From Candidatus Kuenenbacteria bacterium (GTDB lineage: Bacteria > Patescibacteriota > Patescibacteriia > UBA11705 > JABHMO01): a DNA stretch of 64,000 bases. Location of the stretch: positions 2,327 to 66,326 of the forward strand of contig JABMRF010000023.1 in the NCBI GenBank assembly GCA_013202715.1, given 5' to 3'. Shown here one piece after another: positions 17,945 to 53,600 of the stretch. The position numbers and the translations under genes were made by a program. Numbering within the stretch: position 1 is the stretch's first letter; each line of letters starts with the position of its first letter. Below the pieces are notes generated by a model, which saw only the letters and a list, made by a program, of their open reading frames with translations, was not told where the DNA came from and did no database searches.

Positions 17945-18008
17945 AACTAGTCAATAGTCTAGAGTCCGTTAGGTAACTTTTGACTTTTGACCCTAGACTC
18001 AAGACTAA
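17945..18008. repeat. Palindromic intergenic element (MITE-like family; modules agtctagagtc / gacttttgac)
   Basis: actagtcaatagtctagagtccgttaggtaacttttgacttttgaccctagactcaagact. Same family as 22603-22676, 36988-37060, 48925-48999 and 53565-53600. Confidence 0.7.
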
Positions 18009-18014
18009 AAAAAT

Positions 18015-19352
18015 ATGAACAACCAAAAAGCACACGTAATCGCCGTAGACATGGGTTACGGTCATCAACGCGCTGCATTTCCTTTGCGTAAATTGTCTCA
18101 CAACAAAAAAATCATTAATGCCAATGACTATAAAGGAATTCCAGCTTCTGATCGAAAGGTCTGGAGACAAAGTCGCAAAGGCTATGAATTTATTTCTCGA
18201 TTCAAAAAAACTCCAGTAATCGGAGAGATTGTTTGGGATTTATTTGACAAACTTCAGGCCATTCCCCCATTTTATCCCAAAAGAGATCTGTCCGAGCCAA
18301 CAATACAGGTTAAATCTACCATCTCTCTAATTAAGAGAAAAAAGTGGGGCAAACATCTAATCGACAAACTTGCGAAAAATCCTCTTCCCTTGGTTTGCAC
18401 ATTTTTCATACCTGCTTTCATGGCAGAAATTTTTGATTATCCCGGTGAAATTTATTGTCTTGGAACTGACACCGACCTCAGCCGTGCCTGGGTGCCACTG
18501 AATCCAGCGAAAAGTAGAATTAAATACTTGGCGCCAAACCATCGCGTTGAAAAGAGACTGCAGCTCTATGGTGTCAAACCGGAAAATATTTTCATAACTG
18601 GCTTTCCCCTACCGGACGAGCTCGTTGGTGGAGAAAAAGAAACAACGTTGCGGAAAGAACTTGGCTACCGATTGTTTACTCTTGACCCACAAAAAGTTTA
18701 TCTGGACAGATACAAAGAAACCGTTTCGCATCATCTGGGCGAGCACAATTTCCCAAAGAAAAAACATCACCCACTCACACTCATGTTTGCAGTTGGTGGC
18801 GCAGGCGCACAAAGAGAGCTTGGTATTGAAATTGTCAAAAGTTTACGAAAAAAAATCCGCCAAAAACAAATCCGCGTCATATTAGTCGCCGGCATTCACA
18901 ATAATGTTAGCAAATATTTCAAACAGGAAGTAAGAAAGCTTGGACTTGGCGATGAACTAAATAAAAGCATTAAAATTATTTACAGTCAAACAAAAGATGG
19001 CTATTTTAAAAAATTTAACAAAGCAATCAGTCACACCGACATTCTCTGGACAAAACCGAGTGAACTGAGTTTCTATACCGCTCTCGGATTGCCGATCATC
19101 ATGGCTCCGCCAATCGGTTCACAAGAACTTTTCAACCGAAGATGGCTCCGAGCAATTGGCTCTGGAATCAACCAGGAAGATCCTCGCTATACTGACCAAT
19201 GGCTTTTTGACTGGCTGAACAATGGCTGGTTTGCGGAGGCGGCTATGCAAGGATTTTTGGAAGCCTCAACCAGCGGAGCGGAAAACATTCGAAAGATTTT
19301 GGCACACAAGGAAAAGGAAATCAGTGAAATCAAGAAAATTTTGCAGTATTAG
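18015..19352 (+). CDS. GT28-family glycosyltransferase (MGDG synthase / MurG-like)
   Basis: N-terminal HVIAVDMGYGHQRAA (cf. G-GH-RA of the MGDG synthase N-domain). 445 aa. Confidence 0.45.
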   Translation: MNNQKAHVIAVDMGYGHQRAAFPLRKLSHNKKIINANDYKGIPASDRKVWRQSRKGYEFISRFKKTPVIGEIVWDLFDKLQAIPPFYPKRDLSEPTIQVKSTISLIKRKKWGKHLIDKLAKNPLPLVCTFFIPAFMAEIFDYPGEIYCLGTDTDLSRAWVPLNPAKSRIKYLAPNHRVEKRLQLYGVKPENIFITGFPLPDELVGGEKETTLRKELGYRLFTLDPQKVYLDRYKETVSHHLGEHNFPKKKHHPLTLMFAVGGAGAQRELGIEIVKSLRKKIRQKQIRVILVAGIHNNVSKYFKQEVRKLGLGDELNKSIKIIYSQTKDGYFKKFNKAISHTDILWTKPSELSFYTALGLPIIMAPPIGSQELFNRRWLRAIGSGINQEDPRYTDQWLFDWLNNGWFAEAAMQGFLEASTSGAENIRKILAHKEKEISEIKKILQY

Positions 19353-19402
19353 ATAATAAAAAGAAGGCCTCGCGATGCAGGGTCTTCTTTTTATTTTAAA
19401 TT

Positions 19403-20341
19403 TTATAATTCAACAGCTTCAACTTTCACACCCTTACCTTTATCGTATACAAACTTAACATTATATTTTTTTTCAGGGTCTGTGGTTGAAATTAATTTTC
19501 GGAGTTCATCCGCAACATTTAAACCATCCCTACTAATTCTAACTTCTTCAAACGCATAAGAAATACCTTTTAGCGCAGCCATAATGCCACCACCTCCTGA
19601 ATGATGTCTACTTATGTACTCAAAGTGATCTGGAATCGGTGGTAATTCAAATTTATTTGGATCAATTCTTTCCGGATTAATTCCACCAACCGCATCTTGC
19701 AAAGCAAAAAACGCTCGTCTTTCTTCAATAGTTTTTAATTCTCCAAACCCACCAACTTCTACTACCCCTTTATCAGAATATCTTTCAATTTTTACTTTCA
19801 TTCCATCAACTTCACCAATAGAGCCAATTTCTGGCACTTTTATTTTATCATCAGCTTTTAATCTTTTTAATTCTTTTCTAATCTTTTTTTCAACAAAACT
19901 CAAACAATGTTGCTGTAATTCATCATACGAATCATCTTCTCGACTAAGATATTGCTCACCATATTCTGGGCGCATCATTCGATAATAAGGATCATGAACT
20001 CCCTGGGCCACAAAGCCAGTTCCAGCCAAAGTCCAACGCTTTTCAATAGCATGTTTTATTCCTTCTAAGGCAAACAACATTCTAACATATAATTCTGGAT
20101 CATTTCTAGTTCCTTCCCAAACCTCCTTGCGTAAAGCTTGACGCGCTTGTTTTTCTGCTGGAGACAATGGCGCAATCCTGCCCAAAACTGCATCTTGCCA
20201 GGCAATTTCTAAAATATCATCAACATTAGAATCCGGATTTGTTAAGGCTGATTCGATCTCTTTATCATATCTTTGTTGCCAAGCTCCAGCGTTTTGTTTT
20301 AATTGTTCTGGAGAAAGGTCTCCCCCCATTTTTTCTTGCAT
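19403..20341 (-). CDS. Hypothetical protein with N-terminal MQEKMGGDLSPE motif
   Basis: The track ORF extends to 20428 and overlaps pyrG by 79 bp. Internal ATG at 20339-20341 gives MQEKMGGDLSPEQ..., matching the motif family at 13.4-16.4 kb, and leaves an 8-bp gap to pyrG. Confidence 0.5.
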   Translation of the reverse strand: MQEKMGGDLSPEQLKQNAGAWQQRYDKEIESALTNPDSNVDDILEIAWQDAVLGRIAPLSPAEKQARQALRKEVWEGTRNDPELYVRMLFALEGIKHAIEKRWTLAGTGFVAQGVHDPYYRMMRPEYGEQYLSREDDSYDELQQHCLSFVEKKIRKELKRLKADDKIKVPEIGSIGEVDGMKVKIERYSDKGVVEVGGFGELKTIEERRAFFALQDAVGGINPERIDPNKFELPPIPDHFEYISRHHSGGGGIMAALKGISYAFEEVRISRDGLNVADELRKLISTTDPEKKYNVKFVYDKGKGVKVEAVEL

Positions 20342-20349
20342 ATTTTTAT

Positions 20350-22038
20350 TTAATAATTCACAATCTGCAATTCCCCATCTTCCGTTTCTACGCCTCTGCT
20401 CCCATCTACTCCATTCTTCCCCATACATGCTTTCACAAACTCGTTAAAAAGCGGATGCCCTACGAGTGGCCTTGATTTGAACTCCGGATGAAACTGAGTT
20501 GCTACGAAAAACGGATGATCTGGAAGTTCGATTATTTCCACCAATCGGTCATCAGGTGATTTTCCGGCAAATACTAAACCGGCTTGTTCCAGTTGCTCCC
20601 GGTATTCATTATTTACTTCGTAGCGATGTCGGTGTCTCTCAGAAATTTCTTTTTTATTGTAAGCTTTGAAACTTATTGAATTTTCACTCAATACGCAGGG
20701 AAATGCGCCCAGTCGCATTGTTGAACCATAACGGTTGTGCTTAATATTTTCAACCTGATCAGGCATGATGTGAATGACCTGCTCCTTCGAATCAGAATCA
20801 ATTTCTTCCGAGGTTGCATTTGTAATTCCGCAAACATTCCTGGCAAATTCAATTGTAGCAAGCTGAAGTCCGTAACACAAACCAAAAAATGGAATCTTAT
20901 TTTCTCGTAAATATTTGATTGTTAAAATTTTTCCTTCAATACCGCGTGAACCAAATCCGCCCGGCACAATCACGCCATCATATTTTTTCAATTCCTCAAG
21001 TTTTTCTGGCTCTTTTTCATAAACCTCGGAATTAATCCATTCAATTTCAGGCTTTCTGTTGTGAAACCAACAAGCATGCTTGACCGCTTCGATTACGGAA
21101 ATATATGAATCTTTGAGAACAAAATCTCCAGTTTTGAAATACTTACCAACAATACCGATTTTAACCGGCTGATCCACAGTTTCAATTGTATTTACTAAAC
21201 TCTGCCAGTCAGCTAATCCGGGTGCGCCCATCTTCGGTCCCCAGCCAAACAGTTTAAGTATTTTATTACCAACCTCTTCCGCTTCAAAATTAATCGGAAT
21301 CTCATAAATTGATTCCACATCGGGTGCAGAAATAATATGGTCAGGAAAGATACTACCGGAAATTGCAATTTTTTGCTTACGAATTTTGTCCAATGGCTTT
21401 TCCGCGCGACACAAAACAAAATCAGCCCGAATACCGGCTGAATTTAAAGTTCTGATAGCGTACTGAGTTGGTTTGGTTTTCATTTCCCCCACTTTTGATG
21501 GAACTGGCAAAAATGAAACCAGTACAAAAATCACATCATGAAAATTCTGCATTTTCATCATTCTCGCGGCTTCGAGAAACAACATATTTTGATATTCACC
21601 AATTGTACCACCGACCTCAATTAACATTATCTCAGTTTCACTTTTTTTTGTAGCATCGGTAATGCGTCTAATAATTTCTTCTGGAATATGCGGAACCACC
21701 TCAACACATTTTCCTCCATATTCCAAATTGCGTTCACGCTCAATTACCGTCTGATACACCCGACCGGTCGTCATGTAGTTGTCTGACAAAATATTTTTAT
21801 CAAGAAATCTTTCGTAATTACCAAGGTCTTGATCAGTTTCGTCACCATCCTCAGTGACAAAAACTTCCCCATGTTCAGTGGGGTTCATTGTTCCGGCGTC
21901 AACATTAATATACGGGTCTATTTTGATCGCTGAAACTGAATATCCTTTCCCCTGCAAAACCCGACCAATGGACGCGGCGGCAATACCTTTTCCAACGCCA
22001 CTCATAACCCCCCCGACGACAAAAATATACTTAGACAT
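20350..22038 (-). CDS. pyrG: CTP synthase
   Basis: MSKYIFVVGGVMSGVGKGIAAASIGRVLQ...NPTEHGEVFVTEDG and a C-terminal glutamine amidotransferase domain. Confidence 0.97.
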   Translation of the reverse strand: MSKYIFVVGGVMSGVGKGIAAASIGRVLQGKGYSVSAIKIDPYINVDAGTMNPTEHGEVFVTEDGDETDQDLGNYERFLDKNILSDNYMTTGRVYQTVIERERNLEYGGKCVEVVPHIPEEIIRRITDATKKSETEIMLIEVGGTIGEYQNMLFLEAARMMKMQNFHDVIFVLVSFLPVPSKVGEMKTKPTQYAIRTLNSAGIRADFVLCRAEKPLDKIRKQKIAISGSIFPDHIISAPDVESIYEIPINFEAEEVGNKILKLFGWGPKMGAPGLADWQSLVNTIETVDQPVKIGIVGKYFKTGDFVLKDSYISVIEAVKHACWFHNRKPEIEWINSEVYEKEPEKLEELKKYDGVIVPGGFGSRGIEGKILTIKYLRENKIPFFGLCYGLQLATIEFARNVCGITNATSEEIDSDSKEQVIHIMPDQVENIKHNRYGSTMRLGAFPCVLSENSISFKAYNKKEISERHRHRYEVNNEYREQLEQAGLVFAGKSPDDRLVEIIELPDHPFFVATQFHPEFKSRPLVGHPLFNEFVKACMGKNGVDGSRGVETEDGELQIVNY

Positions 22039-22145
22039 GCGAAAACTAAGTTAATAAAAGTTAATGTAAGATAATTGAAGTTGCCTAAAAAGTACATCAG
22101 CTCAATTAACTTTCTTTTATTAACTCTAATTAGCTCTAATTAACA

Positions 22146-22598
22146 TCAATTAACTTTCTTAACAACTACCTTAAACTCACTCTTAATTCCCGCATCAACC
22201 ATTACCGGCACTTTATATTCACCCAATTTTTTAATCGCATCACTAAGCTCGATTTGCTTTGGCTTGAGATCAATTCCTTTTTCAGCTAAAGCAGTAATCA
22301 GTTTATCTTTTGAAATCCCGGCAAACAAAGTATTATTTTCATCAGCTTTTTCTTCAAAAACCACTTCAGTTGACCGCAATTGATTTGCCAGATCTTTTGA
22401 CCCCTTTGTTTTGGTTTTCTTCTCTTTTCCCTTTTTCTCATCTGTCATTTCAACAGAATATTTTTTTACATTGTGTTCTGTTGCTGGGACTGCTAATTTT
22501 TGCGGAAATAAAAAGTTTTGAGCGTAACCGTTGGCAACATTTTTAATTTCACCCTTGCGACCCATTTTTTCAATGTGTTTTAGTAATACTACTTGCAT
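22146..22598 (-). CDS. rplI: 50S ribosomal protein L9
   Basis: [37 protein letters not shown] matches the L9 N-domain. Confidence 0.9.
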
Positions 22599-22602
22599 AC
22601 AT

Positions 22603-22676
22603 TAGTCTAGAGTCTTGAGTCAAAAGTCTAGAGTCAATTCACTACTTTTGACTTTTGACCATTGACTTTTGACTTT
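22603..22676. repeat. Palindromic intergenic element (MITE-like family)
   Basis: tagtctagagtcttgagtcaaaagtctagagtcaattcactacttttgacttttgaccattgacttttgac. Confidence 0.7.
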
Positions 22677-22729
22677 AAAAAACGAAGGATTTCCCCCGTT
22701 CTTAAATTTATTAATAATACTTGTTAATC

Positions 22730-23959
22730 CTACTTTGCTAGTAAAATCTCTACCGCTTTATCCAATTGCGGATCTTTTTCTGCTAAAAAATCTTCCTTAG
22801 TCAAATCAATTTCAACATCAGGGATAATCCCCTCTTCATTAATATTCTTTCCCTTTGGTGTCAACCATTTTGCAATTGTTATTTTAATGGAAGAGCCATC
22901 AGGTAATTTTTTCAAAGCCTGGACAGAACCCTTGCCAAAACTGGTCATACCAACAATTTTTGCAATGTTATAGTCCTGAAACGCACCGGCTACAATTTCC
23001 GAGCCAGAGGCGCTTCCCTGATTGATCAGAATAACAGTTTTGTAATCTTTCAATGCAGCTGATTTTCCAGCTGAATATTCGATCTCCCGACCATCACCAA
23101 ATTTTTCAATGGCTATTAATTCATTCTCAATCCACATTGAACTAATATCGAGCGCTGTTTCGAGCAGTCCGCCAGGATTATTTCTCATATCAAAAATAAT
23201 TCCCTTTGGCTTTCTGTTTTTAACTTCTAGAACAAACTCATTGAATAATTTATTTGTATCGCCGTTGAAGGCGTTAACCTCTAGATAAACCAGGCCGTCA
23301 TTTCTGAATTCCCATTTTACACTTTTCAATTCAATCACACCTCGGACAATTGTAATTTCCTGCGCTACTTCTTCACCCCGAACTATTAATAATTTGACCG
23401 GAGTTCCCTTTTCACCACGAATCAGATGAACAACTTCATCCAGCCCCATACCGAAAATTTCTTGATCATCAACGGCAAAAACCTTGTCCCCGGCCATTAC
23501 CCCAGCCTTGTCAGCCGGTGTATCTGGCAGAGGCGCAATAATAGTAACTATCCCGTCCTTGATTCCAATCTCCGCTCCAATTCCTTGAAATTCACCTGCA
23601 ATCTGATCATCAAAATCCTTTGCAGTTTGTGGCTCAAAAAGTACGGTATATGGATCATCAAGTCCAGCCACAAATCCTTTCAATGCTCCGTAATATAAAT
23701 CTTCTTCACTAATTTTATCTTTATCTACAAAATCATTTTGAATTATTGTCCAGACCTGTTTTATTAAACCACTATCAAAAACCTCAGGCAGTTTAGTTTG
23801 TTTATATAAATCTGGATTTACTTTATAATTAATTTTCCCGTCAGTTAATTTTCCGATAATAAACCCACCGGCAAAAAATACTCCCAATATTACCAAAATA
23901 AACAGAACGATAATTGTCTTTTTTACATTTTTGTTTTTGTTTTTATATCCATTTTCCAT
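22730..23959 (-). CDS. ctpA: C-terminal processing protease (S41 family)
   Basis: PDZ domain (GIGAEIG...PADKAGVMAGDKV) and S41 catalytic region (RNNPGGLL, GSASGSEI). Confidence 0.85.
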   Translation of the reverse strand: MENGYKNKNKNVKKTIIVLFILVILGVFFAGGFIIGKLTDGKINYKVNPDLYKQTKLPEVFDSGLIKQVWTIIQNDFVDKDKISEEDLYYGALKGFVAGLDDPYTVLFEPQTAKDFDDQIAGEFQGIGAEIGIKDGIVTIIAPLPDTPADKAGVMAGDKVFAVDDQEIFGMGLDEVVHLIRGEKGTPVKLLIVRGEEVAQEITIVRGVIELKSVKWEFRNDGLVYLEVNAFNGDTNKLFNEFVLEVKNRKPKGIIFDMRNNPGGLLETALDISSMWIENELIAIEKFGDGREIEYSAGKSAALKDYKTVILINQGSASGSEIVAGAFQDYNIAKIVGMTSFGKGSVQALKKLPDGSSIKITIAKWLTPKGKNINEEGIIPDVEIDLTKEDFLAEKDPQLDKAVEILLAK

Positions 23960-26725: not shown

Positions 26726-26824
26726 TTATTACAACTTAGAATAAATAAAAACGCTTTCAAATCAATGAAAGCATTTTTTATTTGTCTTCTTTTTTATTAT
26801 TCACTAATCCCTAATCTCTATTCT

Positions 26825-27703
26825 CTAGTTACCCTTTGCCTGCCAGTAGACATGCGTTAGATAACTGCGCATAAAAGTGTTTACCGCGCCTCGTAATATT
26901 AGAAGAGCCAAAAGTATCAAAATTATTCCAAGAGTTACAGCTATCGTCAAACCAACTGGCCCAGCAGTAAAACTAAGGATAAGACCCAACAGAATAAATG
27001 GAATCACGAGAATTAACAATGCAACAATTACGCCAATACTGATACCTATCCATAATGCGATTTCCATCAATTTAACAACCAGTAACGCGCCAATATTAGC
27101 CCTAAACAATTGCCATCCTTTTTTAATAGAAGACCAGGCTTTTTCATTTTCTAAAACTGCAAAACAGTAGGAATAATGACGGAAGACAAAAATAAGCAAG
27201 TTATAAATAATCATCAGAACAGTTACAATAACGATTCCAATCCAGATTGTTCCGCCTTCACGTGCAAAAACAAAGATTAAGCCTAAAACTAAAAAAACTA
27301 AATTCAAAATTCCAAATAAAATTTCCATCAACAAAATTCTCCCAATTTTATTGAACCCACTCTTAAACAATTCAACAAATTTAACTGGGCTTCCAGCTTT
27401 AACTTTACTCAACCCAATCAAGATACTGGCATTTGCCCAAAAACCAATTAATACCAACGCTATTCCTAAAAGAGCAAGGCCAATGACCATGGCAATAACA
27501 CCTGGCTCAGAAAGACTAACACCAAGATTACCCATTGCTTCATTAAACGAAAAACCTTGTAAAGCTTCCGTGTCTTCTCTTGTTGGAATATTATAAATAG
27601 CACCTCCGCCACCGATAAATATTCCAAAAATCCAAAGAATTTTATTTTTTATTGTCCACTTCCATGATTTTCCTAAAATCTCACTATAAGCAATTTTAAG
27701 CAT
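26825..27703 (-). CDS. Polytopic membrane protein (hypothetical)
   Basis: 292 aa, ~6 TM helices, Gly-rich segment GIFIGGGGAIYNIP. Confidence 0.5.
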   Translation of the reverse strand: MLKIAYSEILGKSWKWTIKNKILWIFGIFIGGGGAIYNIPTREDTEALQGFSFNEAMGNLGVSLSEPGVIAMVIGLALLGIALVLIGFWANASILIGLSKVKAGSPVKFVELFKSGFNKIGRILLMEILFGILNLVFLVLGLIFVFAREGGTIWIGIVIVTVLMIIYNLLIFVFRHYSYCFAVLENEKAWSSIKKGWQLFRANIGALLVVKLMEIALWIGISIGVIVALLILVIPFILLGLILSFTAGPVGLTIAVTLGIILILLALLILRGAVNTFMRSYLTHVYWQAKGN

Positions 27704-30808: not shown

Positions 30809-30893
30809 TGCTTTTTCTATATCTAAATTGTCTTTATGCTTTAATCTTTATTCTTTTGTCTTTCTTTGCTCTTTGCCCCTTGGTCCTTGCTCC

Positions 30894-31904
30894 TTATTTC
30901 CTATTGTACCACTGCTCATAATAATCTTTGTAATCCCCAGACTTAATCCTCTGCCACCAACCACCATTATTCGCATACCAATCAATTGTCTGCTTGATCC
31001 CCTGCTCAAAATTCATTTTTGGTTGCCACCCTAGCTCGGCTTGAACCTTGTGTGAACGAACTGCGTAACGCCGATCATGACCCGGGCGATCCTTTACATA
31101 TTCAATCATTTCTTCACCAAATCCCATACCCTGTAAAATTGCCATTGTTAATTCGTAATTTGATTTTTCAGAATCTCCGCCAATACAATAAGTATGACCA
31201 ATCCTTCCACCACGAATAACTAAATCAACCGCTTCGCAATGGTCATCAACGTGAATCCAATCACGAACGTTCTTGCCGTCTCCGTAAAGTGGGACTTTTT
31301 TTCCTTCCATTAGATTCGTAATGAAAAGTGGAATAACTTTTTCTGGAAATTGAAACGGGCCATAATTATTTGAGCAATTTGAAATTGTAATCGGCAAGCC
31401 ATAAGTGTGATAATATGCTCGCACCAAATGATCTGATGCGGCCTTGGAAGAAGAGTACGGACTTTTCGGGTCATATGGAGTTTCTTCATGAAATGCTTTG
31501 TTTTCATCTTCCAGTGATAGTGAACCAAAAACCTCATCTGTAGAAACATGGTGAAATCTTTTGTTCCCAAGCTGACGAGCAACTTCGAGAAGTGAATGAG
31601 TTCCAAGCACATTTGTCCGAACAAAAGAAAATGGATCCAAAACTGATCGGTCGACATGAGACTCTGCCGCGAAATGCACAATAATGTCACAATCAACAGC
31701 AATATGCGCTACCAATTCGGAATTTAAAATATCCCCCTTCACAAACTTATAGTTTGGGTGATTTTCAAAGTCTTTTAGATTTTCCAAATTACCCGCATAA
31801 GTCAAACTATCCAGATTGATAACCTGGTCCTGCGGATATTTATTCAAAACATAGCGGATAAAATTCGATCCGATAAATCCTGCTCCTCCGGTCACTAATA
31901 GTTT
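30894..31904 (-). CDS. rmlB: dTDP-glucose 4,6-dehydratase
   Basis: MKLLVTGGAGFIGSNFIRYV...Y..SK and C-terminal ...DRRYAVRSHKVQAELGWQP. Confidence 0.92.
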   Translation of the reverse strand, partial: KLLVTGGAGFIGSNFIRYVLNKYPQDQVINLDSLTYAGNLENLKDFENHPNYKFVKGDILNSELVAHIAVDCDIIVHFAAESHVDRSVLDPFSFVRTNVLGTHSLLEVARQLGNKRFHHVSTDEVFGSLSLEDENKAFHEETPYDPKSPYSSSKAASDHLVRAYYHTYGLPITISNCSNNYGPFQFPEKVIPLFITNLMEGKKVPLYGDGKNVRDWIHVDDHCEAVDLVIRGGRIGHTYCIGGDSEKSNYELTMAILQGMGFGEEMIEYVKDRPGHDRRYAVRSHKVQAELGWQPKMNFEQGIKQTIDWYANNGGWWQRIKSGDYKDYYEQWYNRK

Positions 31905-31987
31905 CATATTTTTTCTAATCATTATTCACAACTTACTAATTACAACTTACTACTTTATTTCAAATAATGCAAATCAATTTTTGACAA

Positions 31988-34782: not shown

Positions 34783-36555
34783 TTATTCAAACAGTAATTT
34801 CAAATTTGGATACTGCTGTCTTAACTTGTCCTGTTCAGTCACAGAAATATCTTTGCTAAAATAAATAACACCGCCGATAGATTTCGGAAGTTTTAATCCT
34901 TCTACCGAGGTAAGGCTACCAAGATCAAGATTACCGCCAATAGATTCCGGAAGTTTTAGTCCTTCTGCCGAGGTAAGGCTACCAAGAGTAAGCCAACCGC
35001 CAATAGATTCCGAAAATTTTAGTCCTTCTGCCGAGGTAAGGCTACCAAGTTCAAGATCGCCGCCAATAGACCCTGGAAGTTTTAATCCTTCTGCCGAGGT
35101 AAGGCTACTAAGCTCAAGATAGCCGCCAACAGATTCCGGAAGTTTTAGTCCGTCTACTGAGGCAAGTCGACTAAGATCAAGATCGCCACTAATAGCTTCA
35201 GGAAGTTTTAACACTTTTGCCGAGGAAAGAAGATCAAGCACAAGATCGCCGTGATGATACTTTATGTTTCCACTCAAAGCTATTGCTTTTGTTGTACTGA
35301 TTTGAAACTTTGGTATGCCAAGAATATGGGACAGATCCGCTCTCATATCCCTACCAGAAAAAATTTCACATATTCGCGGATCTTTTTCATAACCAAATCC
35401 TTCAATCTTGCCGTCAAACTCATAGAGAAAGCGGAGATCGTCCATGGATAGTTCTTCGCTAGCATTATTTTTTGCTTCCAACTCTGTCAACCGCTTCATA
35501 GCTGCTGATTTACTTTTGTATCTCTCCCCCTCCTTTCCGAATTTATTGAGCTTGTCATCTAATATATCTGTATTTGCAATATGTGGATCAAGATTTTGTT
35601 GAGCTGCCACTCCTCTTACTTCGGCAATATTTTCGCCTTCCATACGAATAGCAAGCCTAGGTATTATTGGATTACCTTGTTTATCATGAGAATAATAGAC
35701 ATAAAAGTCTCCGTTCTCGAGCTGTGCTTCTGCGGTACTTTCTCCAGCTGTACACCAACCTGTTCCATGTCCTTGGAGCGATTCTACCAATGGCATATGA
35801 TCCGCTCCCTCATTGTATTTAATCCAGTCACCCGTGGTTATCATCAGTTCGCTTTCTTCTGCTGGCGTAACTTTTTCAATTGCCCAGGCATAAAGCTTAC
35901 CAAAATTCGCGCCCTGCAACAGTTTCTTGAATTCTGGATCATCTTCTGCTAACGAGACATTTTCTTTATTAATTTTTTTTGCCATTGCATCCACAACGTA
36001 AGCCAAAGCTTCTCTATTTAGATCAGGAAATGGAGCTACTGTATCTTTTCTTCTTTTACCAAAAACTTGCTTTTCTTTGTCAAAAGTTGATAATTTTACC
36101 ATACCGGTAAAAGCCCAGTATTTTGCCCAGGTTGGAAAACTAATTGAGTCTTCTGAGGTAAAATAGTCAAGCCAATTGTCCAAGGTTGATTTCTGGTCAG
36201 CAACAATGACCTCTTCTGCCTGCCGCCGTACTTCATCAGTAATTTCAACATCACCATGTCCCAGCTCTCTCGCTAATCTTCTTTGGGTTTCATAGTAGCT
36301 GTCAGGAATATTTTCAGGTTTAATGACAAGTGATTTGTAGTAACTTTGCTTGATTCTATCCAAAACGCGTGGGTCATCTCTGTGGCCCATGTGAGTTTTT
36401 TCAATAACGCCTAGCCAGTCAGAAATTTTTTCTGCCGGTTTTTGAGATGATTTTTCACCCTTTTTCCTTTTTCTTGATTTCTCGTGTTCTACTGGAGGAG
36501 TGGTATGAAGATTGGGATTTCTTTCGTGCAAAAATTGTGGACCTTGCATACTCAT
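34783..36555 (-). CDS. Hypothetical protein with C-terminal tandem 22-aa LRR-like repeats
   Basis: C-terminal x6 repeats of GLKLPESIGGxLxLGSLTSAE. The N-terminal ~400 aa match no known domain. No signal peptide. Confidence 0.55.
   Translation of the reverse strand: MSMQGPQFLHERNPNLHTTPPVEHEKSRKRKKGEKSSQKPAEKISDWLGVIEKTHMGHRDDPRVLDRIKQSYYKSLVIKPENIPDSYYETQRRLARELGHGDVEITDEVRRQAEEVIVADQKSTLDNWLDYFTSEDSISFPTWAKYWAFTGMVKLSTFDKEKQVFGKRRKDTVAPFPDLNREALAYVVDAMAKKINKENVSLAEDDPEFKKLLQGANFGKLYAWAIEKVTPAEESELMITTGDWIKYNEGADHMPLVESLQGHGTGWCTAGESTAEAQLENGDFYVYYSHDKQGNPIIPRLAIRMEGENIAEVRGVAAQQNLDPHIANTDILDDKLNKFGKEGERYKSKSAAMKRLTELEAKNNASEELSMDDLRFLYEFDGKIEGFGYEKDPRICEIFSGRDMRADLSHILGIPKFQISTTKAIALSGNIKYHHGDLVLDLLSSAKVLKLPEAISGDLDLSRLASVDGLKLPESVGGYLELSSLTSAEGLKLPGSIGGDLELGSLTSAEGLKFSESIGGWLTLGSLTSAEGLKLPESIGGNLDLGSLTSVEGLKLPKSIGGVIYFSKDISVTEQDKLRQQYPNLKLLFE
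34861..35235. repeat. Six near-identical tandem 66-bp repeats inside the CDS (encode the LRR-like units)
   Basis: Repeats of ...gccaatagattccggaagttttagtccttctgccgaggtaaggctaccaag... with only a few substitutions per unit. Confidence 0.8.
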
Positions 36556-36987: not shown

Positions 36988-37060
36988 TAGTCAAAAGTTT
37001 TAAGTCAATAGTCTAGAGTTGCTTACAACTTTTGACTTTTGACTTTTGACTCTAGACTTG
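36988..37060. repeat. Palindromic intergenic element (MITE-like family)
   Basis: tagtcaaaagttttaagtcaatagtctagagttgcttacaacttttgacttttgacttttgactctagact. Confidence 0.7.
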
Positions 37061-37678
37061 TTAAATCCCCTTTTTAAACAAACTAATGGCCGCAAATAAT
37101 AAGCTAACGTAAAGTAATACCTGCGCCATAAAAATCATCATTGGCATATGCAAGAAAAAACCGAGCATCAAAAATCCGGCACCAAAACAATGAAAATTCA
37201 TTTTAATTTTCCCCCAAACATTGGCCTGGATAAGAGCATCCTTGTCCTTCAATCTATAAAAAGTTCCGCCCAAAATAAAAGCCAGCTCAAAGGCCAGCAA
37301 CAATATAGTGAGTGGTAGATTAATTTTTAAAAGTAAAACTGCAACCACGATTCCAATCAGCAATTTGTCAGCAATCGGATCCCAAACCTTTCCCCAAGCT
37401 GTAATTTGGTTTCGCACCCGAGCCATTGAGCCATCCAGCATGTCAGTCGTCGCGAGGACAATAAACAGAACGAGAGCAATCATATATTCTTCGCCCAACA
37501 ATAAAACGATCAGTATTGGGGAAAAGATCAACCTTATAAAGGTTAAATGATTTGGCCGGATTGATTTCGGAAAAAACGGCAGAACGTACTTGAGCACGTG
37601 ATCATAAGGTGCAAAAATAATTTCCTCATCAAGAAGAAATTCTTCTTCTTTGTGGTCATTAAAAAATTTCATAGACAA
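37061..37678 (-). CDS. CDP-alcohol phosphatidyltransferase family protein
   Basis: TDMLDGSMARVRNQITAWGKVWDPIADK matches D-x2-DG-x2-AR...G-x3-D-x3-D. Multi-TM. Confidence 0.8.
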   Translation of the reverse strand: MSMKFFNDHKEEEFLLDEEIIFAPYDHVLKYVLPFFPKSIRPNHLTFIRLIFSPILIVLLLGEEYMIALVLFIVLATTDMLDGSMARVRNQITAWGKVWDPIADKLLIGIVVAVLLLKINLPLTILLLAFELAFILGGTFYRLKDKDALIQANVWGKIKMNFHCFGAGFLMLGFFLHMPMMIFMAQVLLYVSLLFAAISLFKKGI

Positions 37679-43252: not shown

Positions 43253-43315
43253 ATAATTATTTGTATTATGGTAAACGTATTATGTATTACGTATTATGTA
43301 TTACGTATCATGGGT
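43253..43315 (-). promoter_or_regulatory. thrS 5' leader with tandem CATAATAC/CGTAATAC octamer repeats abutting the start codon
   Basis: Gene-sense: acgtaatacataatacgtaatacataatacgtttaccataatacaaataattatATG. No SD. A ~40-nt copy is repeated upstream of 43373..43729 (43730-43785). Confidence 0.5.
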
Positions 43316-43729: not shown

Positions 43730-43785
43730 ATAGGTATTTGTATTATGGTAAATGTATTATGTATTATGGATTACGCTTATAGCAT
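43730..43785 (-). promoter_or_regulatory. Duplicate of the thrS-type leader upstream of 43373..43729
   Basis: Gene-sense: ...ccataatacataatacatttaccataatacaaatacctatATG. ~40 nt are shared with the thrS leader. Confidence 0.5.
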
Positions 43786-44226: not shown

Positions 44227-44620
44227 ATTAAATAATTTCCGCCCCACTTTCTGCGACCGACGTAATTTTATATGAAGGCGGTAGTGGGCTTTTCTGAACT
44301 ATGCGTTGAACTGACTAGAAGTCAGGCAGAAATTTTTTTATTCAAACAAAAACCCAAGGCATATACCTTGGGACCTGAACAAATTCAGGCGGTTCCACCC
44401 AAGTTCTTCGGACAAACAAACGCCAAAGCTCTTAATTTATTAAATTGTCCTCACAAACTTAGTTAACCACGACAGTTAAATCCACAAAGGTATCTGGTTG
44501 GTAGCCAGACCAATCATCTGTGATTATATTAAGTATAACATTACTAAAATGAATGTCAACAAAAAAACCAGGCTTATTAAACCTGGTTGTGTTCGATTTC
44601 ACAAGACTTCTCTAGGAAGT

Positions 44621-47610: not shown

Positions 47611-47655
47611 TCCGCGTCAATCCGCGTTAGATCCGCGTTAATCCGCGGTATTAAC
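47611..47655. promoter_or_regulatory. Array of four ATCCGCG units at 10-11-bp spacing
   Basis: ttccgcgtca|atccgcgttag|atccgcgttaa|tccgcggtatt. Lies ~60-100 nt upstream of the 47049..47480 promoter and overlaps the 3' end of 47638..48780. Confidence 0.5.
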
Positions 47656-48780: not shown

Positions 48781-48924
48781 AGAGAAAATAAGGCGAAACG
48801 AGGCGGAACAGGATAACAGGACTCAAAAGACTTTTGCCTTGTAAACCCGTTCCCTTGTATAGCCATGTATAGCCTTGTTTTATTATATTTCCATTTTAAC
48901 AGAATTCCGGGGAAATGCAACAAC

Positions 48925-48999
48925 TCAAGTCAAAAGTCTTGAGTCAATAGTCTAGAGTCGTCTCACAACTCTTGACTTTTGACTTTTGACTCTAGACTG
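48925..48999. repeat. Palindromic intergenic element (MITE-like family), overlaps the dnaE stop
   Basis: caagtcaaaagtcttgagtcaatagtctagagtcgtctcacaactcttgacttttgacttttgactctagactg, with a perfect inverted agtctagagtc/gactctagact. Confidence 0.75.
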
Positions 49000-51900
49000 C
49001 CTTCACCGCTCCGAGTCCCAACAGTTCCTCAATCTTTGCTTTGCTTTCACCGTTAATATCGATCTGAAAATTTGTTTTTACAAGTTTATCTTCAATTTTC
49101 AAAATGACCTGGTACCGACCTGGGATACCCATGAAAAGCATTTTGACTCTATTGGCAAATTCATGAGTTGCGCCGGAAGGATAATTTATTATTGCTCGCG
49201 GAAGATTTGCTCGCCTTCCACCTGAACCGAAACGCGGTCGAGGTGCTGCCGGAGCCGAACCTGTAAGTTCGTGAATAACTGCATCTAAATTTTCATCTTC
49301 GATCGTCCAAACATTATTTGCTAATATTTTTATTTCTTCATCCTTGTCAGAAATAGTTCCTTCAATAATCATTATTTTCCCTTCTTTCCAAACACCTTCA
49401 TATTGTTTGTACAATCTAGGAAAAATCAAAACTTCCACAGCCTTCAGAGAGTCTGCCAAAGTAAGGAACACCATCGGATCACCTTTTTTCGTTGTAATTT
49501 TCTTGAGAGTTGAAACCACGCCACCAATTCGGACAACTTCCCCACCCTTGTCAGTACTCAAATCAGACAAAGGAACTATTATACCGGACAACTGATTTTG
49601 ATAATTTTTAAATGGATGCTCTGAGACATAGAGGCCCAAAAATTCTTTTTCCCAGGCCAAAATCTGTTTTTGGCCAATATCTTTTGCATCGCGCAAGAGA
49701 AGTCGAGGCATACTGCCTTCGGAATCTCCATTTAGACTAAAAATATTTATTTGTTTCGTGGCTTTGCTTGCCTCGATTTCTTTGACAAACAAAATCATTT
49801 TATCAACATTTTCCAAAAGTTTGCTCCGCCTGCCAAAAATATCCATCGCCCCACTTTTGATCAAGCCCTCCAAAGACTTTTTATTCAAAGCTCTATTTCC
49901 AATCCTACTCAAAAAACCTTCTATCTTTTCGTACGGACCGTTTTCTTTTCGTTCATGAATAATTTCTTTGGCCACATTTTCTCCTACATTTCGAATTGCG
50001 TTCAGACCAAACCTGATCCTTGGCTTTTCTTCTGCCAGAGACTCCGCCACTACAGTGAAGGTTGAAAAACTTTCATTAACACTTGGCGGCATGATCTCAA
50101 TTCCCATTTGCTGACATTCGTCAATTTCAATTGCGACTCGGTCAAAATTTCCCTGATCTGAAGTTAGAAGAGAAGCCATGAATTCAGTCGGATAATTTGC
50201 CTTCAAATATGCGGTTTGATAAGCAATCAGCGCATAACACGCGGCATGTGATTTATTAAAACCATATTCAGCAAATTTTTCCATGGCCAAAAAGGTTTGC
50301 TGGGCAATTTCTTTGCTAATACTATTTTTCTGACATCCATCAATAAAAACCACCTTCATTTTTTCCATCAACTCTGCGATTTTTTTACCCATCGCTTTGC
50401 GCAGAGTGTCAGCCTGCCCGCCTGTAAATCCGGCCATATCTTTGGAAAGTTGCATCACCTGTTCCTGATATACAATTACGCCATGAGTATTTTTGAGTGC
50501 GCTCTCCATGAGTGGATGAAAATATGAAATGCTTTTTAAACCATGTTTTCTGGAAATAAACTCGTCAACCATACCTGAATTTAGAGGTCCCGGTCGATAC
50601 AGAGAAACCATAGCAATCAGATCTTCAAATTCAGTTGGCTTCAATTGACGAAGATATTTTTTCATTCCACTGGATTCAAACTGAAAAACGCCAGTAGTGT
50701 AACCGTCCCGAAATAATTTGTACGCTTTCGGATCATCTATCAGCAAATCATCAATATTTATTTTTTTACCATGTATTTTTTCAATAATGTCACACGCCCT
50801 CTCAATAATTGTTAGATTTTTCAAACCCAAAAAATCCATTTTTAACAACCCCAAGTCTTCCACGGGATGAAGTGAGTATTGAGTAATGATCGCTTCTTCC
50901 TGATCACGCGCATACTGAACTGGGCAATAATTTGTAATTTCTTCACGTGTAATAACCACGCCACAGGCGTGGGTAGACGAATGACGAGCAACGCCCTCCA
51001 ATTTTCTAGCAAAATCCAAAAGTCGTTTGGCATCATCACTACTTTCGTAAAGTTGTTTGACTTCCACGACCTTGGTTATAGCTTCGCTCAGCTTTGTGCC
51101 CATTGGAATTAATTTTGAGATCTTGTCACAAAAAGTATAAGGCATATCCAGAACACGCCCTACATCGCGGACTGCAGCACGCGCAGCCATTGTTCCGAAA
51201 GTTATAATCTGCGCCACATGATTTTTGCCATATTTTTCTTCTACATATTGCAAAACTTCCTCTCTCCTCTCGTCAGCAAAATCAATATCAATATCAGGCA
51301 TAGAAATTCGATCCGGATTCAAAAACCGCTCAAACAATAATTCATATTTCAGCGGTTCTAAGTTTGTCACGCCCAAAAGATAAGAAATAATACTACCGGC
51401 AGCTGATCCACGGCCCGGTCCTACGACGATGCCCTTGCTTTTTGCCCATCTAATAAAGTCGTAAACAATTAAAAAGTATGATGAATAGCCGGTGCGCTGA
51501 ATAACACTAAGTTCAAACTCAGCCCGGTCAATTACTTTTTTTTCAAATTCACCTAACTGCTCTTTTTTGTAATCAAAATCATACCTTCGGGAAATGTTGC
51601 TATAACAAAGATCCCGCAAGTATTCAAAATCCGTTTTTCCTTTCGGAACTTCAAAATGAGGTAGTTGAATTTCACCAAGCGGAATTTCCAAACTGCATTT
51701 TGCCGCAACTTTATTTGTGTTTTCTAAAACCTCTAGATTGCCACGAAAGTTATCTGCCATCTGCTGGTAAGTATACAGGGAAAAATCCTCACCAAGGTAA
51801 CTCATTCGATCTTTATCGGTGATAACTTTTTTTGTTTGCAGACAGATAAGAATATCGTGCGCTTCTGCATCTTCTGAATTTAGATAATGAGTGTCGTTTG

Positions 51901-52507
51901 TGGCCACTATCGGGATATCAAGCTTTTTTCCAAGTTCAAATATCTTATTATTAACAATTTTTTGCTCCGGAATGTTTGGGTGATGCTGAACTTCCAGAAA
52001 AAAATTATCTTTTCCAAAAACATTCAGATATTTCTTTATTACCAGTTCAATTTTTTCATCTTCAAGTCCGTTTTTTATTGCTGATGGAATCTCCCCTGCC
52101 AGACAAGCTGATAAAGCAATGATACCGGTACTATATTTTCGTAAAAGCTCCCAGTCAATTCTTGGCTTGTAATAAAATCCTTCCAAATGAGCAAAAGAAG
52201 TCAATTTAATCAGATTTTTATACCCTTCATAATCTTTTGCCAATAAAATCAAATGATGACGCTTTTCATCACCGGCATCTTTTTTCTTGCGGTCATTAAC
52301 AATATACGATTCAACACCGACAATTGGTTTAATTCCTGCGGCTTTGCATTTTTGATAAAACTCAATCGCGCCGTACATCACACCATGATCAGTTAGTGCC
52401 AGAGCTGTCATGCCTTCTTCTTTTGCTTTATTAACAAGGTCGTCGATCTTGATCAGACCGTCGAGCAAAGAATAGTGGCTATGGACATGGAGAGGAGTAT
52501 ATTTCAT
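48992..52507 (-). CDS. dnaE: DNA polymerase III alpha subunit
   Basis: PHP domain MKYTPLHVHSHYSLLDG..., polymerase core, 1171 aa. Confidence 0.97.
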   Translation of the reverse strand: MKYTPLHVHSHYSLLDGLIKIDDLVNKAKEEGMTALALTDHGVMYGAIEFYQKCKAAGIKPIVGVESYIVNDRKKKDAGDEKRHHLILLAKDYEGYKNLIKLTSFAHLEGFYYKPRIDWELLRKYSTGIIALSACLAGEIPSAIKNGLEDEKIELVIKKYLNVFGKDNFFLEVQHHPNIPEQKIVNNKIFELGKKLDIPIVATNDTHYLNSEDAEAHDILICLQTKKVITDKDRMSYLGEDFSLYTYQQMADNFRGNLEVLENTNKVAAKCSLEIPLGEIQLPHFEVPKGKTDFEYLRDLCYSNISRRYDFDYKKEQLGEFEKKVIDRAEFELSVIQRTGYSSYFLIVYDFIRWAKSKGIVVGPGRGSAAGSIISYLLGVTNLEPLKYELLFERFLNPDRISMPDIDIDFADERREEVLQYVEEKYGKNHVAQIITFGTMAARAAVRDVGRVLDMPYTFCDKISKLIPMGTKLSEAITKVVEVKQLYESSDDAKRLLDFARKLEGVARHSSTHACGVVITREEITNYCPVQYARDQEEAIITQYSLHPVEDLGLLKMDFLGLKNLTIIERACDIIEKIHGKKINIDDLLIDDPKAYKLFRDGYTTGVFQFESSGMKKYLRQLKPTEFEDLIAMVSLYRPGPLNSGMVDEFISRKHGLKSISYFHPLMESALKNTHGVIVYQEQVMQLSKDMAGFTGGQADTLRKAMGKKIAELMEKMKVVFIDGCQKNSISKEIAQQTFLAMEKFAEYGFNKSHAACYALIAYQTAYLKANYPTEFMASLLTSDQGNFDRVAIEIDECQQMGIEIMPPSVNESFSTFTVVAESLAEEKPRIRFGLNAIRNVGENVAKEIIHERKENGPYEKIEGFLSRIGNRALNKKSLEGLIKSGAMDIFGRRSKLLENVDKMILFVKEIEASKATKQINIFSLNGDSEGSMPRLLLRDAKDIGQKQILAWEKEFLGLYVSEHPFKNYQNQLSGIIVPLSDLSTDKGGEVVRIGGVVSTLKKITTKKGDPMVFLTLADSLKAVEVLIFPRLYKQYEGVWKEGKIMIIEGTISDKDEEIKILANNVWTIEDENLDAVIHELTGSAPAAPRPRFGSGGRRANLPRAIINYPSGATHEFANRVKMLFMGIPGRYQVILKIEDKLVKTNFQIDINGESKAKIEELLGLGAVKAV

Positions 52508-52591
52508 AATATAATTCAGATAGTTATCAAGGTCATTTTAGCACAGAATTTGCGTTCTCCAAAATCGGGAGTTATCCACCTTCATTAATCC

Positions 52592-52701
52592 AAAAGGGGG
52601 CTCCATAGTCCTGTTCGGAGCGAAGCGGAGAATTACTTTAAAGGGGGCTCCATAGTCCTGTTCGGAGTGAAACGGAGAACAGGCTGTGGAGCCCCCTTTT
52701 T
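52592..52701. repeat. Duplicated half-site plus ~20-bp-stem hairpin upstream of dnaE
   Basis: gggggctccatagtcctgttcggag occurs twice (52596-52620, 52644-52668). The second copy pairs with gaacaggctgtggagccccc (52676-52696), followed by ttttt. Confidence 0.6.
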
Positions 52702-52775
52702 GAAAACTTTGTGTGGCTTTTTGAGTTTCATGCAAACAAAAAATCGCCCGAATTTTCGAGCGACCAATTTCAAAT

Positions 52776-53189
52776 TTACTGTTTTTCAACCGTTAAAATC
52801 AATCCGGCTGTGAAGGTACGTTCATTAACGTTCACATCAATTTTGGCGAATGAGATCACTTTATAATGTTTCCCAACTTCGATCAATGCTTTGGCCAAGA
52901 TTTCACGACAGTCCTTTCCCCAATAAAGAGAATCATAACCCGGCCATACATAAAAATCATTGTATCCGCATTTGATTATGTTCGCATTGACAAAGGCCAA
53001 GCCGTCATGATATTCAACTGTATACTGCGGCATGCTCTTCTGCCGATCAAGTCGCTCTTGCTTTTCCTGCTCTACCATTTCCTTCTGCTGTTGCTTCTCT
53101 TCTCGCTGAGCGATTTCATCTTCTGTTAAGTCTCGACAACCGCTGAGAGTAAAACAAATCATCAACGCAAGATATAGCCATTTTTTCAT
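52776..53189 (-). CDS. Lipoprotein (hypothetical)
   Basis: MKKWLYLALMICFTLSGC lipobox. Start set at that Met. Confidence 0.55.
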   Translation of the reverse strand: MKKWLYLALMICFTLSGCRDLTEDEIAQREEKQQQKEMVEQEKQERLDRQKSMPQYTVEYHDGLAFVNANIIKCGYNDFYVWPGYDSLYWGKDCREILAKALIEVGKHYKVISFAKIDVNVNERTFTAGLILTVEKQ

Positions 53190-53199
53190 TTTAACACCT

Positions 53200-53421
53200 C
53201 TATTCGTCCGCTGCGATAACATCTTGTGTTGTCACAGAGTCTGTTGTTGATTGAACTTGCTCAATTGATTGAGCATCTGTGTCTTTCAACGTAACTTCAA
53301 TATGATAGGCAACGGCAAACACTGTCATTATGATTGCTACAAAAATGAGAACTAACATTGTAAGAACAAAACCAAAGTTCTCAAAAATTTTCTTTAAATC
53401 AAATTTTTTCCTTTCCGGCAT
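53200..53421 (-). CDS. Small single-TM protein (hypothetical)
   Basis: 73 aa with TM helix GFVLTMLVLIFVAIIMTVFAVAY. Confidence 0.4.
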   Translation of the reverse strand: MPERKKFDLKKIFENFGFVLTMLVLIFVAIIMTVFAVAYHIEVTLKDTDAQSIEQVQSTTDSVTTQDVIAADE

Positions 53422-53539
53422 CTTTTTCTCCTCTCATTAGCTAAAATTCAAAGATCAACCTCAATAGATCAATTTAGCAGACAATACATATTTTGTCAAC
53501 CTGTATACGAATTTTTGTCTTAAATTTACAAAAAAAAAA

Positions 53540-53568
53540 CAGACATATATGTCTATTTTTTTAACTTT
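53540..53568. terminator. Bidirectional terminator hairpin
   Basis: aaaaaaaaacagacatatatgtctattttttt. Confidence 0.6.
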
Positions 53569-53600
53569 CGACTTTTGACTCTAGACTCTAGACTATTCCA
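53565..53600. repeat. Half-copy of the MITE-like palindromic element
   Basis: ctttcgacttttgactctagactctagact. Confidence 0.5.

Follow-up and report, generated by a model that had tools for sequence, protein, structure and literature searches.

Among the tandem repeats in the intergenic DNA of prokaryotes, heptamers are the most frequent class, and no function has been accepted for them (PMC6344855; PMC4692102; PMC4679880); both their origin and their role have been open since the 1990s (PMC6344855, PMC4679880). The direct repeats of TAACTGA described by MacGregor (2015; PMC4679880) are intergenic in marine Beggiatoaceae, Cyanobacteria, and Bacteroidetes, and it was noted in the same study that cold-shock proteins bind one per heptamer. 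G-rich heptamers have been characterized as GGGAATC in Xanthomonas and GGGGA(C/T)T in Nostoc (Rehm et al. 2015; PMC4692102). Slippage has been put forward as a general mechanism for heptamer repeats (Mrazek 2007, as cited in PMC4679880 and PMC4692102). A second group of short repeats comprises the repetitive extragenic palindromic (REP) elements, their hairpin-forming doublets (REPINs), and the RAYT transposases (Bertels and Rainey 2011, PMC3116915; Di Nocera et al. 2013, PMC3733652). Here, a dispersed hairpin of about 70 nucleotides (nt) is described from a 64-kb stretch of contig JABMRF010000023.1 of Candidatus Kuenenbacteria (hereafter the window), which belongs to the Candidate Phyla Radiation (CPR; Patescibacteria). 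The element is probably a lineage-specific, non-coding, copy-propagated palindromic repeat, the arms of which are short tandem arrays of a 7-nt unit and which belongs to the heptamer-repeat class.

Copies and structure of the element

The window contains four full copies of the element, about 70 nt each, and one copy consisting of a single arm, none of which is expected by chance (Table 1). The copy counts apply to the window and about 2 kb more of the same genome. The motif GACTTTTGAC occurs 10 times in the window against an expectation of 0.26, and AGTCTAGAGTC, with at most one mismatch allowed, occurs 13 times against 0.40; every match of either motif lies inside the five loci. A single degenerate 24-mer matches all five loci (seven matches, and none in shuffled sequences), and the gapped core AGTCTAGAGTY-N6-12-ACTYTTGACTTTTGAC has matches in the window only at the four full copies. 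A profile hidden Markov model of the family, built from the four full copies, was run on the window, on DNA of relatives, and on loci from other organisms. In the window it recovers the five loci only; the full copies score 64–82 bits, whereas the half copy scores 25 bits. The elements are unchanged in three independent metagenome assemblies, and therefore they are not assembly artefacts; the sole difference near an element among those assemblies, which represent the same population, is an A9/A10 homopolymer. The gapped core has no match in the metagenome-contig collection searched, which evidently lacks the Joint Genome Institute samples whose contigs carry the element.

The organization of the full copies is 5′-(AGTC N3)3-5, a loop of 6–8 nt, and (N3 GACT)4-5-3′. 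Every arm is a period-7 tandem array with 76–100% matches according to Tandem Repeats Finder, and the units are in register in an alignment in which the four full copies are colinear over approximately 72 nt. Units of the 5′ arm consist of AGTC followed by the spacers AAA, TAG, TTG, or AAT, and those of the 3′ arm of the spacers TTT, CTA, CAA, or ATT followed by GACT or GACC. The number of units per arm differs among the loci, from three to five; the innermost 5′ units are always AAT/TAG and the innermost 3′ units always TTT/TTT. Copies 3 and 4 are 94–95% identical in each arm, and their loop regions, CTTACAAC and CTCACAAC, differ at one position. As judged from the alignment, the four full copies descend from a common sequence. 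The occurrence of near-identical 70-nt copies with near-identical loops in unrelated spacers indicates that some process of copying and insertion has acted.

All five copies have the same orientation on the + strand. The GC skew of that strand is negative throughout, which indicates that the region belongs to one replichore. Since the inner units differ between the arms and the element is not a perfect palindrome, the profile score depends on orientation, and it drops to 23–50 bits when the full copies are read in reverse. The predicted RNA folds of the four full copies are interrupted hairpins with free energies of −19 to −34 kcal/mol and z-scores of −3 to −5. In the AU-rich stems, 4-bp AGUC:GACU blocks alternate with 3 × 3 internal loops, within which pairing is incomplete. 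No hairpin is predicted for the half copy. None of the elements matches an Rfam family at the gathering threshold or at E-values up to 1.

A preliminary description of the window had reported palindromic, hairpin-forming elements at these five loci, assembled from two modules and placed at gene ends or between genes. The loci and their coordinates are confirmed by the reading of the sequence, the module counts, and the profile, and so is the placement, including an overlap with the stop codon of dnaE, to which an overlap with the stop codon of the DUF4012 gene is added. A hairpin is predicted for the four full copies but not for the half copy. The repeated sequences underlying the two modules also exist; however, they represent a single 7-nt unit, AGTC+NNN or its complement, present three to five times per arm.

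Probable insertion into spacers that lack the element in relatives

The window was compared with syntenic loci of relatives (L145, L147, L148, L150, and L151; approximately 95 kb in total), the DnaE proteins of which are 78%, 72%, and 71% identical to that encoded in the window, and the S41 proteases 65–68% identical. The profile search of this syntenic DNA detected no copy of the element. The spacer between the genes for the CDP-alcohol phosphatidyltransferase (CDP-OH transferase) and the HIT protein measures 14 nt in L145 and 17 nt in L147 versus 78 nt in the window, and the excess corresponds to the hairpin. The leaders of the DUF6938 gene and rplI were aligned by eye between the window, L150, and L151. 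A terminator follows the S41 protease gene in all three species; the ATG of rplI is reached after 13 nt in L151 and 53 nt in L150, whereas in the window the terminator is followed by a 72-nt hairpin and 5 nt to the ATG. The DUF6938 leader has a terminator and an extended −10 promoter element in all three species, which are followed by a plain 30-nt leader in L151 and by six copies of the 9-mer TAACTTGAT in L150 (15370–15443); the window has the hairpin instead. The leaders of the relatives at the three start-proximal sites are short and AU-rich (13–53 nt), apart from the 9-mer array, which is unrelated to the element. Downstream of dnaE and of the DUF4012 gene, the relatives carry unrelated sequence, which includes in part other period-7 arrays. 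The relatives lack the element at orthologous spacers, and therefore it behaves as a small inserted, copy-propagated element; in this respect it resembles MITE- and REP-type repeats, as the preliminary description had suggested. The spacers of the relatives without the element suggest that a heptamer-built hairpin can insert as a unit into spacers of 13–30 nt.

Gene context and position in transcripts

Each of the five copies lies between genes or overlaps a gene at its stop codon only. Copy 1 is located between the gene of a cNMP-binding protein and the DUF6938 gene (ATG at 18015); it forms nearly the entire 5′ untranslated region (UTR) of the latter and ends 8 nt before its start codon. The conserved −10 element upstream of copy 1 suggests that transcription starts at about the first base of the copy, which would position the hairpin at the 5′ end of the transcript. 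Copy 2 lies between the terminator of the S41 protease gene and rplI, which encodes ribosomal protein L9 and has its ATG (22598–22596, minus strand) 5 nt away. That terminator was read from the sequence and is not in the output of the pattern scan; relatives have a terminator at the same place. Copy 3 takes up the spacer that separates the CDP-alcohol phosphatidyltransferase gene's stop codon (37061–37063) from the HIT-protein gene's start codon (36982–36980), and ends 6 nt before the ATG. Copy 4 is flanked by dnaE and the gene of a 380-residue protein; the dnaE stop codon (48992–48994, minus strand) and the codon preceding it are inside the outermost unit of the copy. The half copy is flanked by the DUF4012 gene and the gene of a 148-residue protein. 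On the gene strand it begins at the stop codon of the DUF4012 gene (53593–53595) and is followed by an ordinary terminator hairpin with a T10 tract (53530–53555, minus strand). In gene direction, the starts of copies 3 and 4 and of the half copy fall on a stop codon or 0–2 nt after it. A Shine-Dalgarno sequence of the GGAGG type precedes approximately 11 of 50 genes in the window; the others, including all genes adjacent to an element, have AU-rich leaders lacking one. The AUG is unpaired in the predicted folds of all three copies close to a start codon. The flanking genes, which include rplI, dnaE, and those of the HIT, DUF6938, and DUF4012 proteins, share no function.

It is possible to propose how the element spreads and what it does. 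A pre-formed copy would be inserted at a new site through a trans-acting activity, in a manner resembling that of REPINs or miniature inverted-repeat transposable elements (MITEs), and replication slippage would afterwards remodel the number and order of the 7-nt units. The persistence of the element would require no cellular function. Co-transcription with neighbouring genes would produce a self-contained, interrupted stem-loop in the mRNA, at the 5′ terminus in the case of the DUF6938 gene or between cistrons, which may serve as a barrier to RNases and modulate Shine-Dalgarno-independent initiation, as other such hairpins do, while leaving the AUG unpaired. The most likely molecular consequence of the element, inferred from the predicted folds and the gene context, is a stem-loop that precedes the first cistron or separates two cistrons in mRNAs without a Shine-Dalgarno sequence. 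The gene repertoires of CPR bacteria are usually small. If this holds for the present host, the list of candidate enzymes and binding proteins is short. For annotation, the elements are markers of 5′ UTRs and of spacers between cistrons, and two stop codons fall within them; the calling of gene ends in metagenome-assembled CPR genomes can be disturbed as a result.

Table 1 Copies of the heptamer hairpin, associated transcription signals, and other period-7 arrays in the window
Feature	Position	Strand	Details
Full copy 1	17949-18006	+	5′ arm 17949-17966 (AGTCAAT AGTCTAG AGTC), loop 17967-17974
Full copy 1, 3′ arm	17975-18006	+	AACTTTT GACTTTT GACCCTA GACTCAA GACT
Full copy 2	22604-22674	+	5′ arm 22604-22635, loop ~22636-22643, 3′ arm 22644-22674
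Full copy 3	36989-37058	+	5′ arm 36989-37020, loop 37021-37026, 3′ arm 37027-37058
Full copy 4	48928-48998	+	5′ arm 48928-48959, loop 48960-48966, 3′ arm 48967-48998
Single-arm (half) copy	53563-53594	+	3′ (GACT) arm only, AACTTTC GACTTTT GACTCTA GACTCTA GACT
Extended −10 promoter element	17932-17942	+	TATGGTAAAAT; conserved in three species (TATGsTAAAAT), just upstream of copy 1
Intrinsic-terminator-like hairpin and T6	22677-22700	-	AACGGGGGAAAUCCUUCGUUUUUU; after the S41 protease gene, immediately upstream (gene direction) of copy 2
Other period-7 array	9480-9520		
Other period-7 array	26798-26832		
Other period-7 array	30832-30898		
Other period-7 array	31928-31955		
Other period-7 array	43258-43313		
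Other period-7 array	43734-43773		
Other period-7 array	55567-55598		
Other period-7 array	56487-56521		
Other period-7 array	63768-63904		

Related arrays in other organisms and their polarity

The degenerate 24-mer was also compared with GTDB genomes, where the matches listed are mainly direct arrays of (GACTTTT)n in Cyanobacteriota, Bacteroidota, several CPR lineages, and other groups, and are uninformative on the genome of the species itself. A scan of metagenome contigs with a 20-mer identified 21 loci, all from other organisms and none from this species; some of them are in contigs with a GC content of 71–73%, immediately before an ATG. The profile detected complete hairpins with the architecture of the element in Nostoc (L028), an uncultured cyanobacterium (L072), a member of Acidobacteriota (L041), and an uncultured bacterium (L015), as well as in viral contigs (L160 and others) and a metagenome contig (L140). 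The last of these has three hairpins within 8 kb, which again fill spacers from stop to start codon. A Stigonema species has a dispersed element of approximately 225 bp with (AAAAGTC)4 and (GACTTTT)3-4 near its ends (L029, 47–363; L030, 1487–1803). The two Stigonema copies have unrelated flanks and differ by exactly one heptamer, which points to slippage within a mobile unit. There is no sign in viral contigs that the GACT heptamer is privileged: (GACTTTT)3 occurs at 13 loci, compared with 10, 23, and 88 for permuted heptamers.

Inverted pairs of such arrays follow a rule of polarity. In arrangement A, which reads alike on both strands, the inverted partner lies within 120 nt on the 5′ side of the GACT-type array, and arrangement B is its mirror. 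Inverted AGTC/GACT arrays at most 120 nt apart have arrangement A at 24 independent loci and arrangement B at one (p = 1.5e-6), and the four full copies in the window are all of arrangement A. Inverted arrays with a CTGA core obey the same rule, with 29 cases in which the TCAG arm is 5′ of the CTGA arm and none of the mirror form. The loci that display this polarity include L015, L028, L041, L072, L140, and L160 and, among those of viruses, L286–L739. At spacings of 300–5000 nt, arrangements A and B are about equally frequent, at 86 and 101. Duplexes of the two arrangements have the same nearest-neighbour energy, and therefore stability does not explain the rule. In single arrays of other organisms, it is the 3′ end of the GACT reading, far more often than the 5′ end, that adjoins a gene boundary, irrespective of gene orientation. 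At 141 loci from other organisms, the GACT reading precedes start codons in 20 cases versus 10, and the AGTC reading follows stop codons in 40 cases versus 14.

The strong polarity of inverted heptamer arrays constrains any model of their origin. Elements of the form 5′-(AGTC N3)n-loop-(N3 GACT)n-3′ have been seen in CPR bacteria, Cyanobacteriota, Bacteroidota, Acidobacteriota, and viral contigs. That they constitute a coherent cross-phylum class of stop-to-start spacer elements, generated by a common strand-polar mechanism, is a speculative and doubtful proposition. If it were true, the mechanism could consist in an enzyme producing or moving the hairpins, or in a protein with an oligonucleotide-binding (OB) fold that reads 7-nt units beside start and stop codons, and it would provide the first mechanistic handle on the dominance of period 7 in prokaryotic intergenic DNA.

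Mobility and alternative explanations

Several observations weigh against the element being a copy-propagated repeat with a functional fold. No mobilising enzyme was found in the window, and the five copies have no target-site duplication and no constant flanking nucleotide or tetranucleotide. Their flanks share no direct repeat, and a TA dinucleotide is possible at copy 1 only. An open reading frame (ORF) for an IS200-like Y1_Tnp protein (3397–3954, minus strand) is bracketed by 86-nt direct repeats (3319–3404 and 3997–4082) that are 94% identical and contain small hairpins, and a second, weak Y1_Tnp ORF (9840–10382) contains a perfect 48-bp palindrome (10109–10156); the repeats at both ORFs are unrelated in sequence to the element. 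The presence of several unrelated heptamer families in one genome fits a general replication-based origin better than it fits many specific transposases. A covariation test identified 0 compensatory pairs among the four full copies, because the copies are too alike. Many of the 3-nt spacers are unpaired, and the fold, which is read from predicted structure, carries no sign of selection. The relatives are distant, with the nearest DnaE 78% identical, and at each individual site the sequence comparison would also be explained by loss in the relatives.

It is unlikely, although several features would fit, that the element is a true REPIN- or MITE-type non-autonomous transposon, the transposase of which (for example, a RAYT or an IS200-like Y1 enzyme of the HUH type) is encoded elsewhere and copies the single-stranded hairpin into the lagging-strand template without target duplication. 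The element is a dispersed hairpin with near-identical copies in unrelated spacers, and relatives do not have it at orthologous spacers. The absence of a target-site duplication is expected for Y1 enzymes, Y1_Tnp genes are present in the window, the five copies share one orientation relative to replication, and the fixed polarity of the inverted arrays (24 versus 1) is what transposon ends would show. However, the repeats flanking the Y1 ORFs are different ones, and a protein identical to the product of ORF 3397–3954 was found at one locus only. The copies do not have the GTAG/CGTC tag of REPs or a constant nucleotide 5′ of the insertions. Furthermore, arrangements A and B are equally frequent at spacings of 0.3–5 kb, so that no autonomous element bracketed by AGTC/GACT arms was seen in approximately 6 Mb of loci from other organisms, and the genome harbours at least six unrelated heptamer families. 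The preliminary description had likened the element to MITE- and REP-type repeats and had suggested a search for a cognate transposase or an insertion sequence (IS) with matching termini. Membership in those families is not upheld, since neither a target-site duplication, nor the tag, nor a transposase gene flanked by the element was found within the window, and no IS with matching termini is present there either. Its statement that the element is unrelated to IS200-end repeats agrees with the comparison with the repeats flanking the Y1_Tnp ORFs.

A selected cis-acting array of binding sites in RNA or single-stranded DNA, in which one OB-fold domain (of a cold-shock protein or ribosomal protein S1) would bind per 7-nt unit and tune translation or stability in the absence of a Shine-Dalgarno sequence, as has been proposed for TAACTGA repeats, is less probable still. 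Three of the five copies end 5–8 nt before starts that lack a Shine-Dalgarno sequence, the same position as reported for TAACTGA repeats, for which the binding of one cold-shock protein per heptamer was noted (MacGregor 2015, PMC4679880). The AGTC/GACT tetramer is conserved at a strict 7-nt phase while the 3-nt spacers vary and are often unpaired, and the boundary bias at the 141 loci of other organisms (20 versus 10 and 40 versus 14) fits this reading. By contrast, relatives have either unrelated arrays or no array in the orthologous leaders, so that no conserved regulon is visible, and the flanking genes lack a common function. The two arms pair, and this pairing would be in competition with binding to single strands; moreover, (GACTTTT)3 is no commoner than permuted heptamers in viral contigs.

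The heptamer arms and the many period-7 arrays of the window tie the element to the intergenic heptamer-repeat class. The window has 15 period-7 segments (593 nt), whereas each of the other periods from 4 to 15 is represented by 0–2 segments, and shuffled sequences have about 0 (≤0.2). The families of these arrays are unrelated to each other and include GTATTAY, TTCTCTA/TAGAGAA, AACTTTT, AAAATCC/TTTGGAT, and others, amounting to at least six heptamer families; the earlier count of at least two independent repeat families was thus an understatement. Most of the other period-7 arrays are located a short distance upstream of start codons, and inverted pairs occur among them. Period-7 arrays are present in the relatives L145, L148, and L150, and there are none in L147 and L151. 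The family AAAAGTT/AAAAGGT, which is one base away from AAAAGTC, is common to the window and L145, and the thrS leaders of two species contain different heptamers at the same place.

This abundance of heptamers could be taken to mean that each element arose at its own site by slippage and fold-back synthesis, without any movement, and that the similarity of the copies is convergence. Period-7 arrays of many sequences are scattered over the genome and its relatives, the orthologous thrS leaders of two species differ in their heptamers, and the general slippage mechanism cited above would apply. Nevertheless, such a process cannot yield copies 3 and 4, which have four different units in identical order, a common inner core, and near-identical loops, nor the core common to all four full copies, and it is very unlikely to account for the family. 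The notion that the copies are Rho-independent terminators or attenuators, which rests on hairpins at gene ends and one sub-hairpin of copy 4 listed as terminator-like by the pattern scan, can be practically dismissed, because the full hairpins are not followed by a U-tract on the gene strand and have AU-rich, interrupted stems, copies 1 and 2 and the half copy each stand beside a separate ordinary terminator, and copy 3 lies between tightly linked genes, 6 nt before a start codon.

The tetranucleotide CTAG is depleted in the window outside the elements (observed/expected 0.21), and 11 of the 56 CTAG sites are inside the five elements; HIP1 is absent. A connection with restriction or methylation (GANTC, CTAG) was considered and rejected, since no mechanism follows from the CTAG counts.

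Other repeats and signals in the window

Several of the period-7 arrays have features of their own. The arrays at 26798–26832 and 56487–56521 are complements within one family, and those at 43258–43313 and 43734–43773 share GTATTAY. The array at 55567–55598 constitutes the entire 5′ UTR of the DUF4012 gene, and that at 63768–63904 is a hairpin with 58-nt arms beside a tRNA. In the relatives, an inverted heptamer pair of AATAAAT/ATCTTTT follows dnaE (L148, 13558–13672), and the arrays of L145 (15839–15916 and 6841–6958) comprise TTCATNN heptamers before thrS and a 118-nt AAAAGGK array.

Repeats with other periods also occur in the window. A 63-nt tandem repeat with 5.7 copies and 82% matches (34870–35229) is located inside an ORF (34783–36555, minus strand) that is the counterpart of the carbamoyltransferase gene of the relatives, in which it would encode repeats of 21 residues. 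Two adjacent 40-nt direct repeats, 95% identical, are positioned just upstream of the dnaE start (52593–52679). A palindrome with 35-nt arms that are 94% complementary (57515–57578) separates ORFs ending at 57500 and starting at 57592. Repeats with a period of 10–11 nt (ATCCGCGTTA and its complement CGGATTTAACG) are found at 47611–47647, 59265–59294, 62330–62363, and 63154–63203, where they are intergenic and in both orientations. The region 44366–44593 (minus strand) gives a full-length but sub-threshold match to the T-box leader, with 35.8 bits against a gathering score of 93 and E = 2.6e-4.

Comparison with known systems

The behaviour of the element is like that of REPINs or MITEs, yet it lacks the testable defining features of those families. 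It shares with REPs and REPINs the short extragenic palindrome, the multiple copies, the doublet forming a long hairpin, and the absence of target duplication; REPs and REPINs are in addition non-autonomous and have been proposed to stabilize mRNA, to which the element may be likened. By contrast, it begins with AGTC and ends with GACT instead of bearing the GTAG/CGTC tag, its arms are tandem heptamers and not palindromic REPs, its stems are AU-rich and not GC-rich, and no RAYT is associated with it within the window. Like MITEs, the element is small, non-coding, and dispersed, has inverted ends, and differs in insertion between species. However, a target-site duplication is missing, as is a cognate IS with matching ends in the window, and there is scarcely any interior beyond the loop of 6–8 nt.

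Elhai et al. (2008) reportedly described the small dispersed repeats (SDRs) of Nostoc as very small mobile repeats that contain hairpins and are associated with tandem heptamers. The SDRs are said to be units of 21–27 nt inserted into heptamer arrays; the element differs from such units in that the heptamer arrays themselves form the hairpin. Short tandemly repeated repetitive (STRR) sequences of heterocystous cyanobacteria were reportedly described by Mazel et al. in 1990. The element resembles STRR sequences and the G-rich heptamers in being composed of intergenic tandem heptamers. The STRR and G-rich arrays vary in copy number, and some of them, like the arms of the element, are inverted pairs able to form stem-loops. 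The complementary strands of STRR1 and STRR3, according to our own reading of their consensus, presumably correspond to GACT+NNN (GACTGGG and GACTGTT), which is the same core. Unlike the element, STRR sequences and G-rich heptamers are mostly long direct arrays, G-rich with proposed quadruplexes, and have not been described as dispersed hairpin units that conserve a loop.

The TAACTGA repeats are similar to the element in their 7-nt unit, short arrays (2–6 units of TAACTGA), intergenic location, and patchy distribution across phyla. In both systems, most arrays end a few nucleotides before starts that lack a Shine-Dalgarno sequence, at 8, 5, and 6 nt for copies 1, 2, and 3, and some overlap the end of the upstream ORF. 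Copies 4 and 5 (the single-arm copy) depart from the TAACTGA pattern in that they adjoin stop codons. Inverted pairs form a hairpin in the element, whereas only one indirect repeat of TAACTGA has been reported, in the BOGUAY genome (PMC4679880). Furthermore, the unit is AGTC combined with AAA, TAG, TTG, or AAT, the entire 70-nt element is repeated between loci, and the host is a CPR bacterium. The class to which the element belongs is known, and what is new is a dispersed hairpin built of heptamers in a CPR host.

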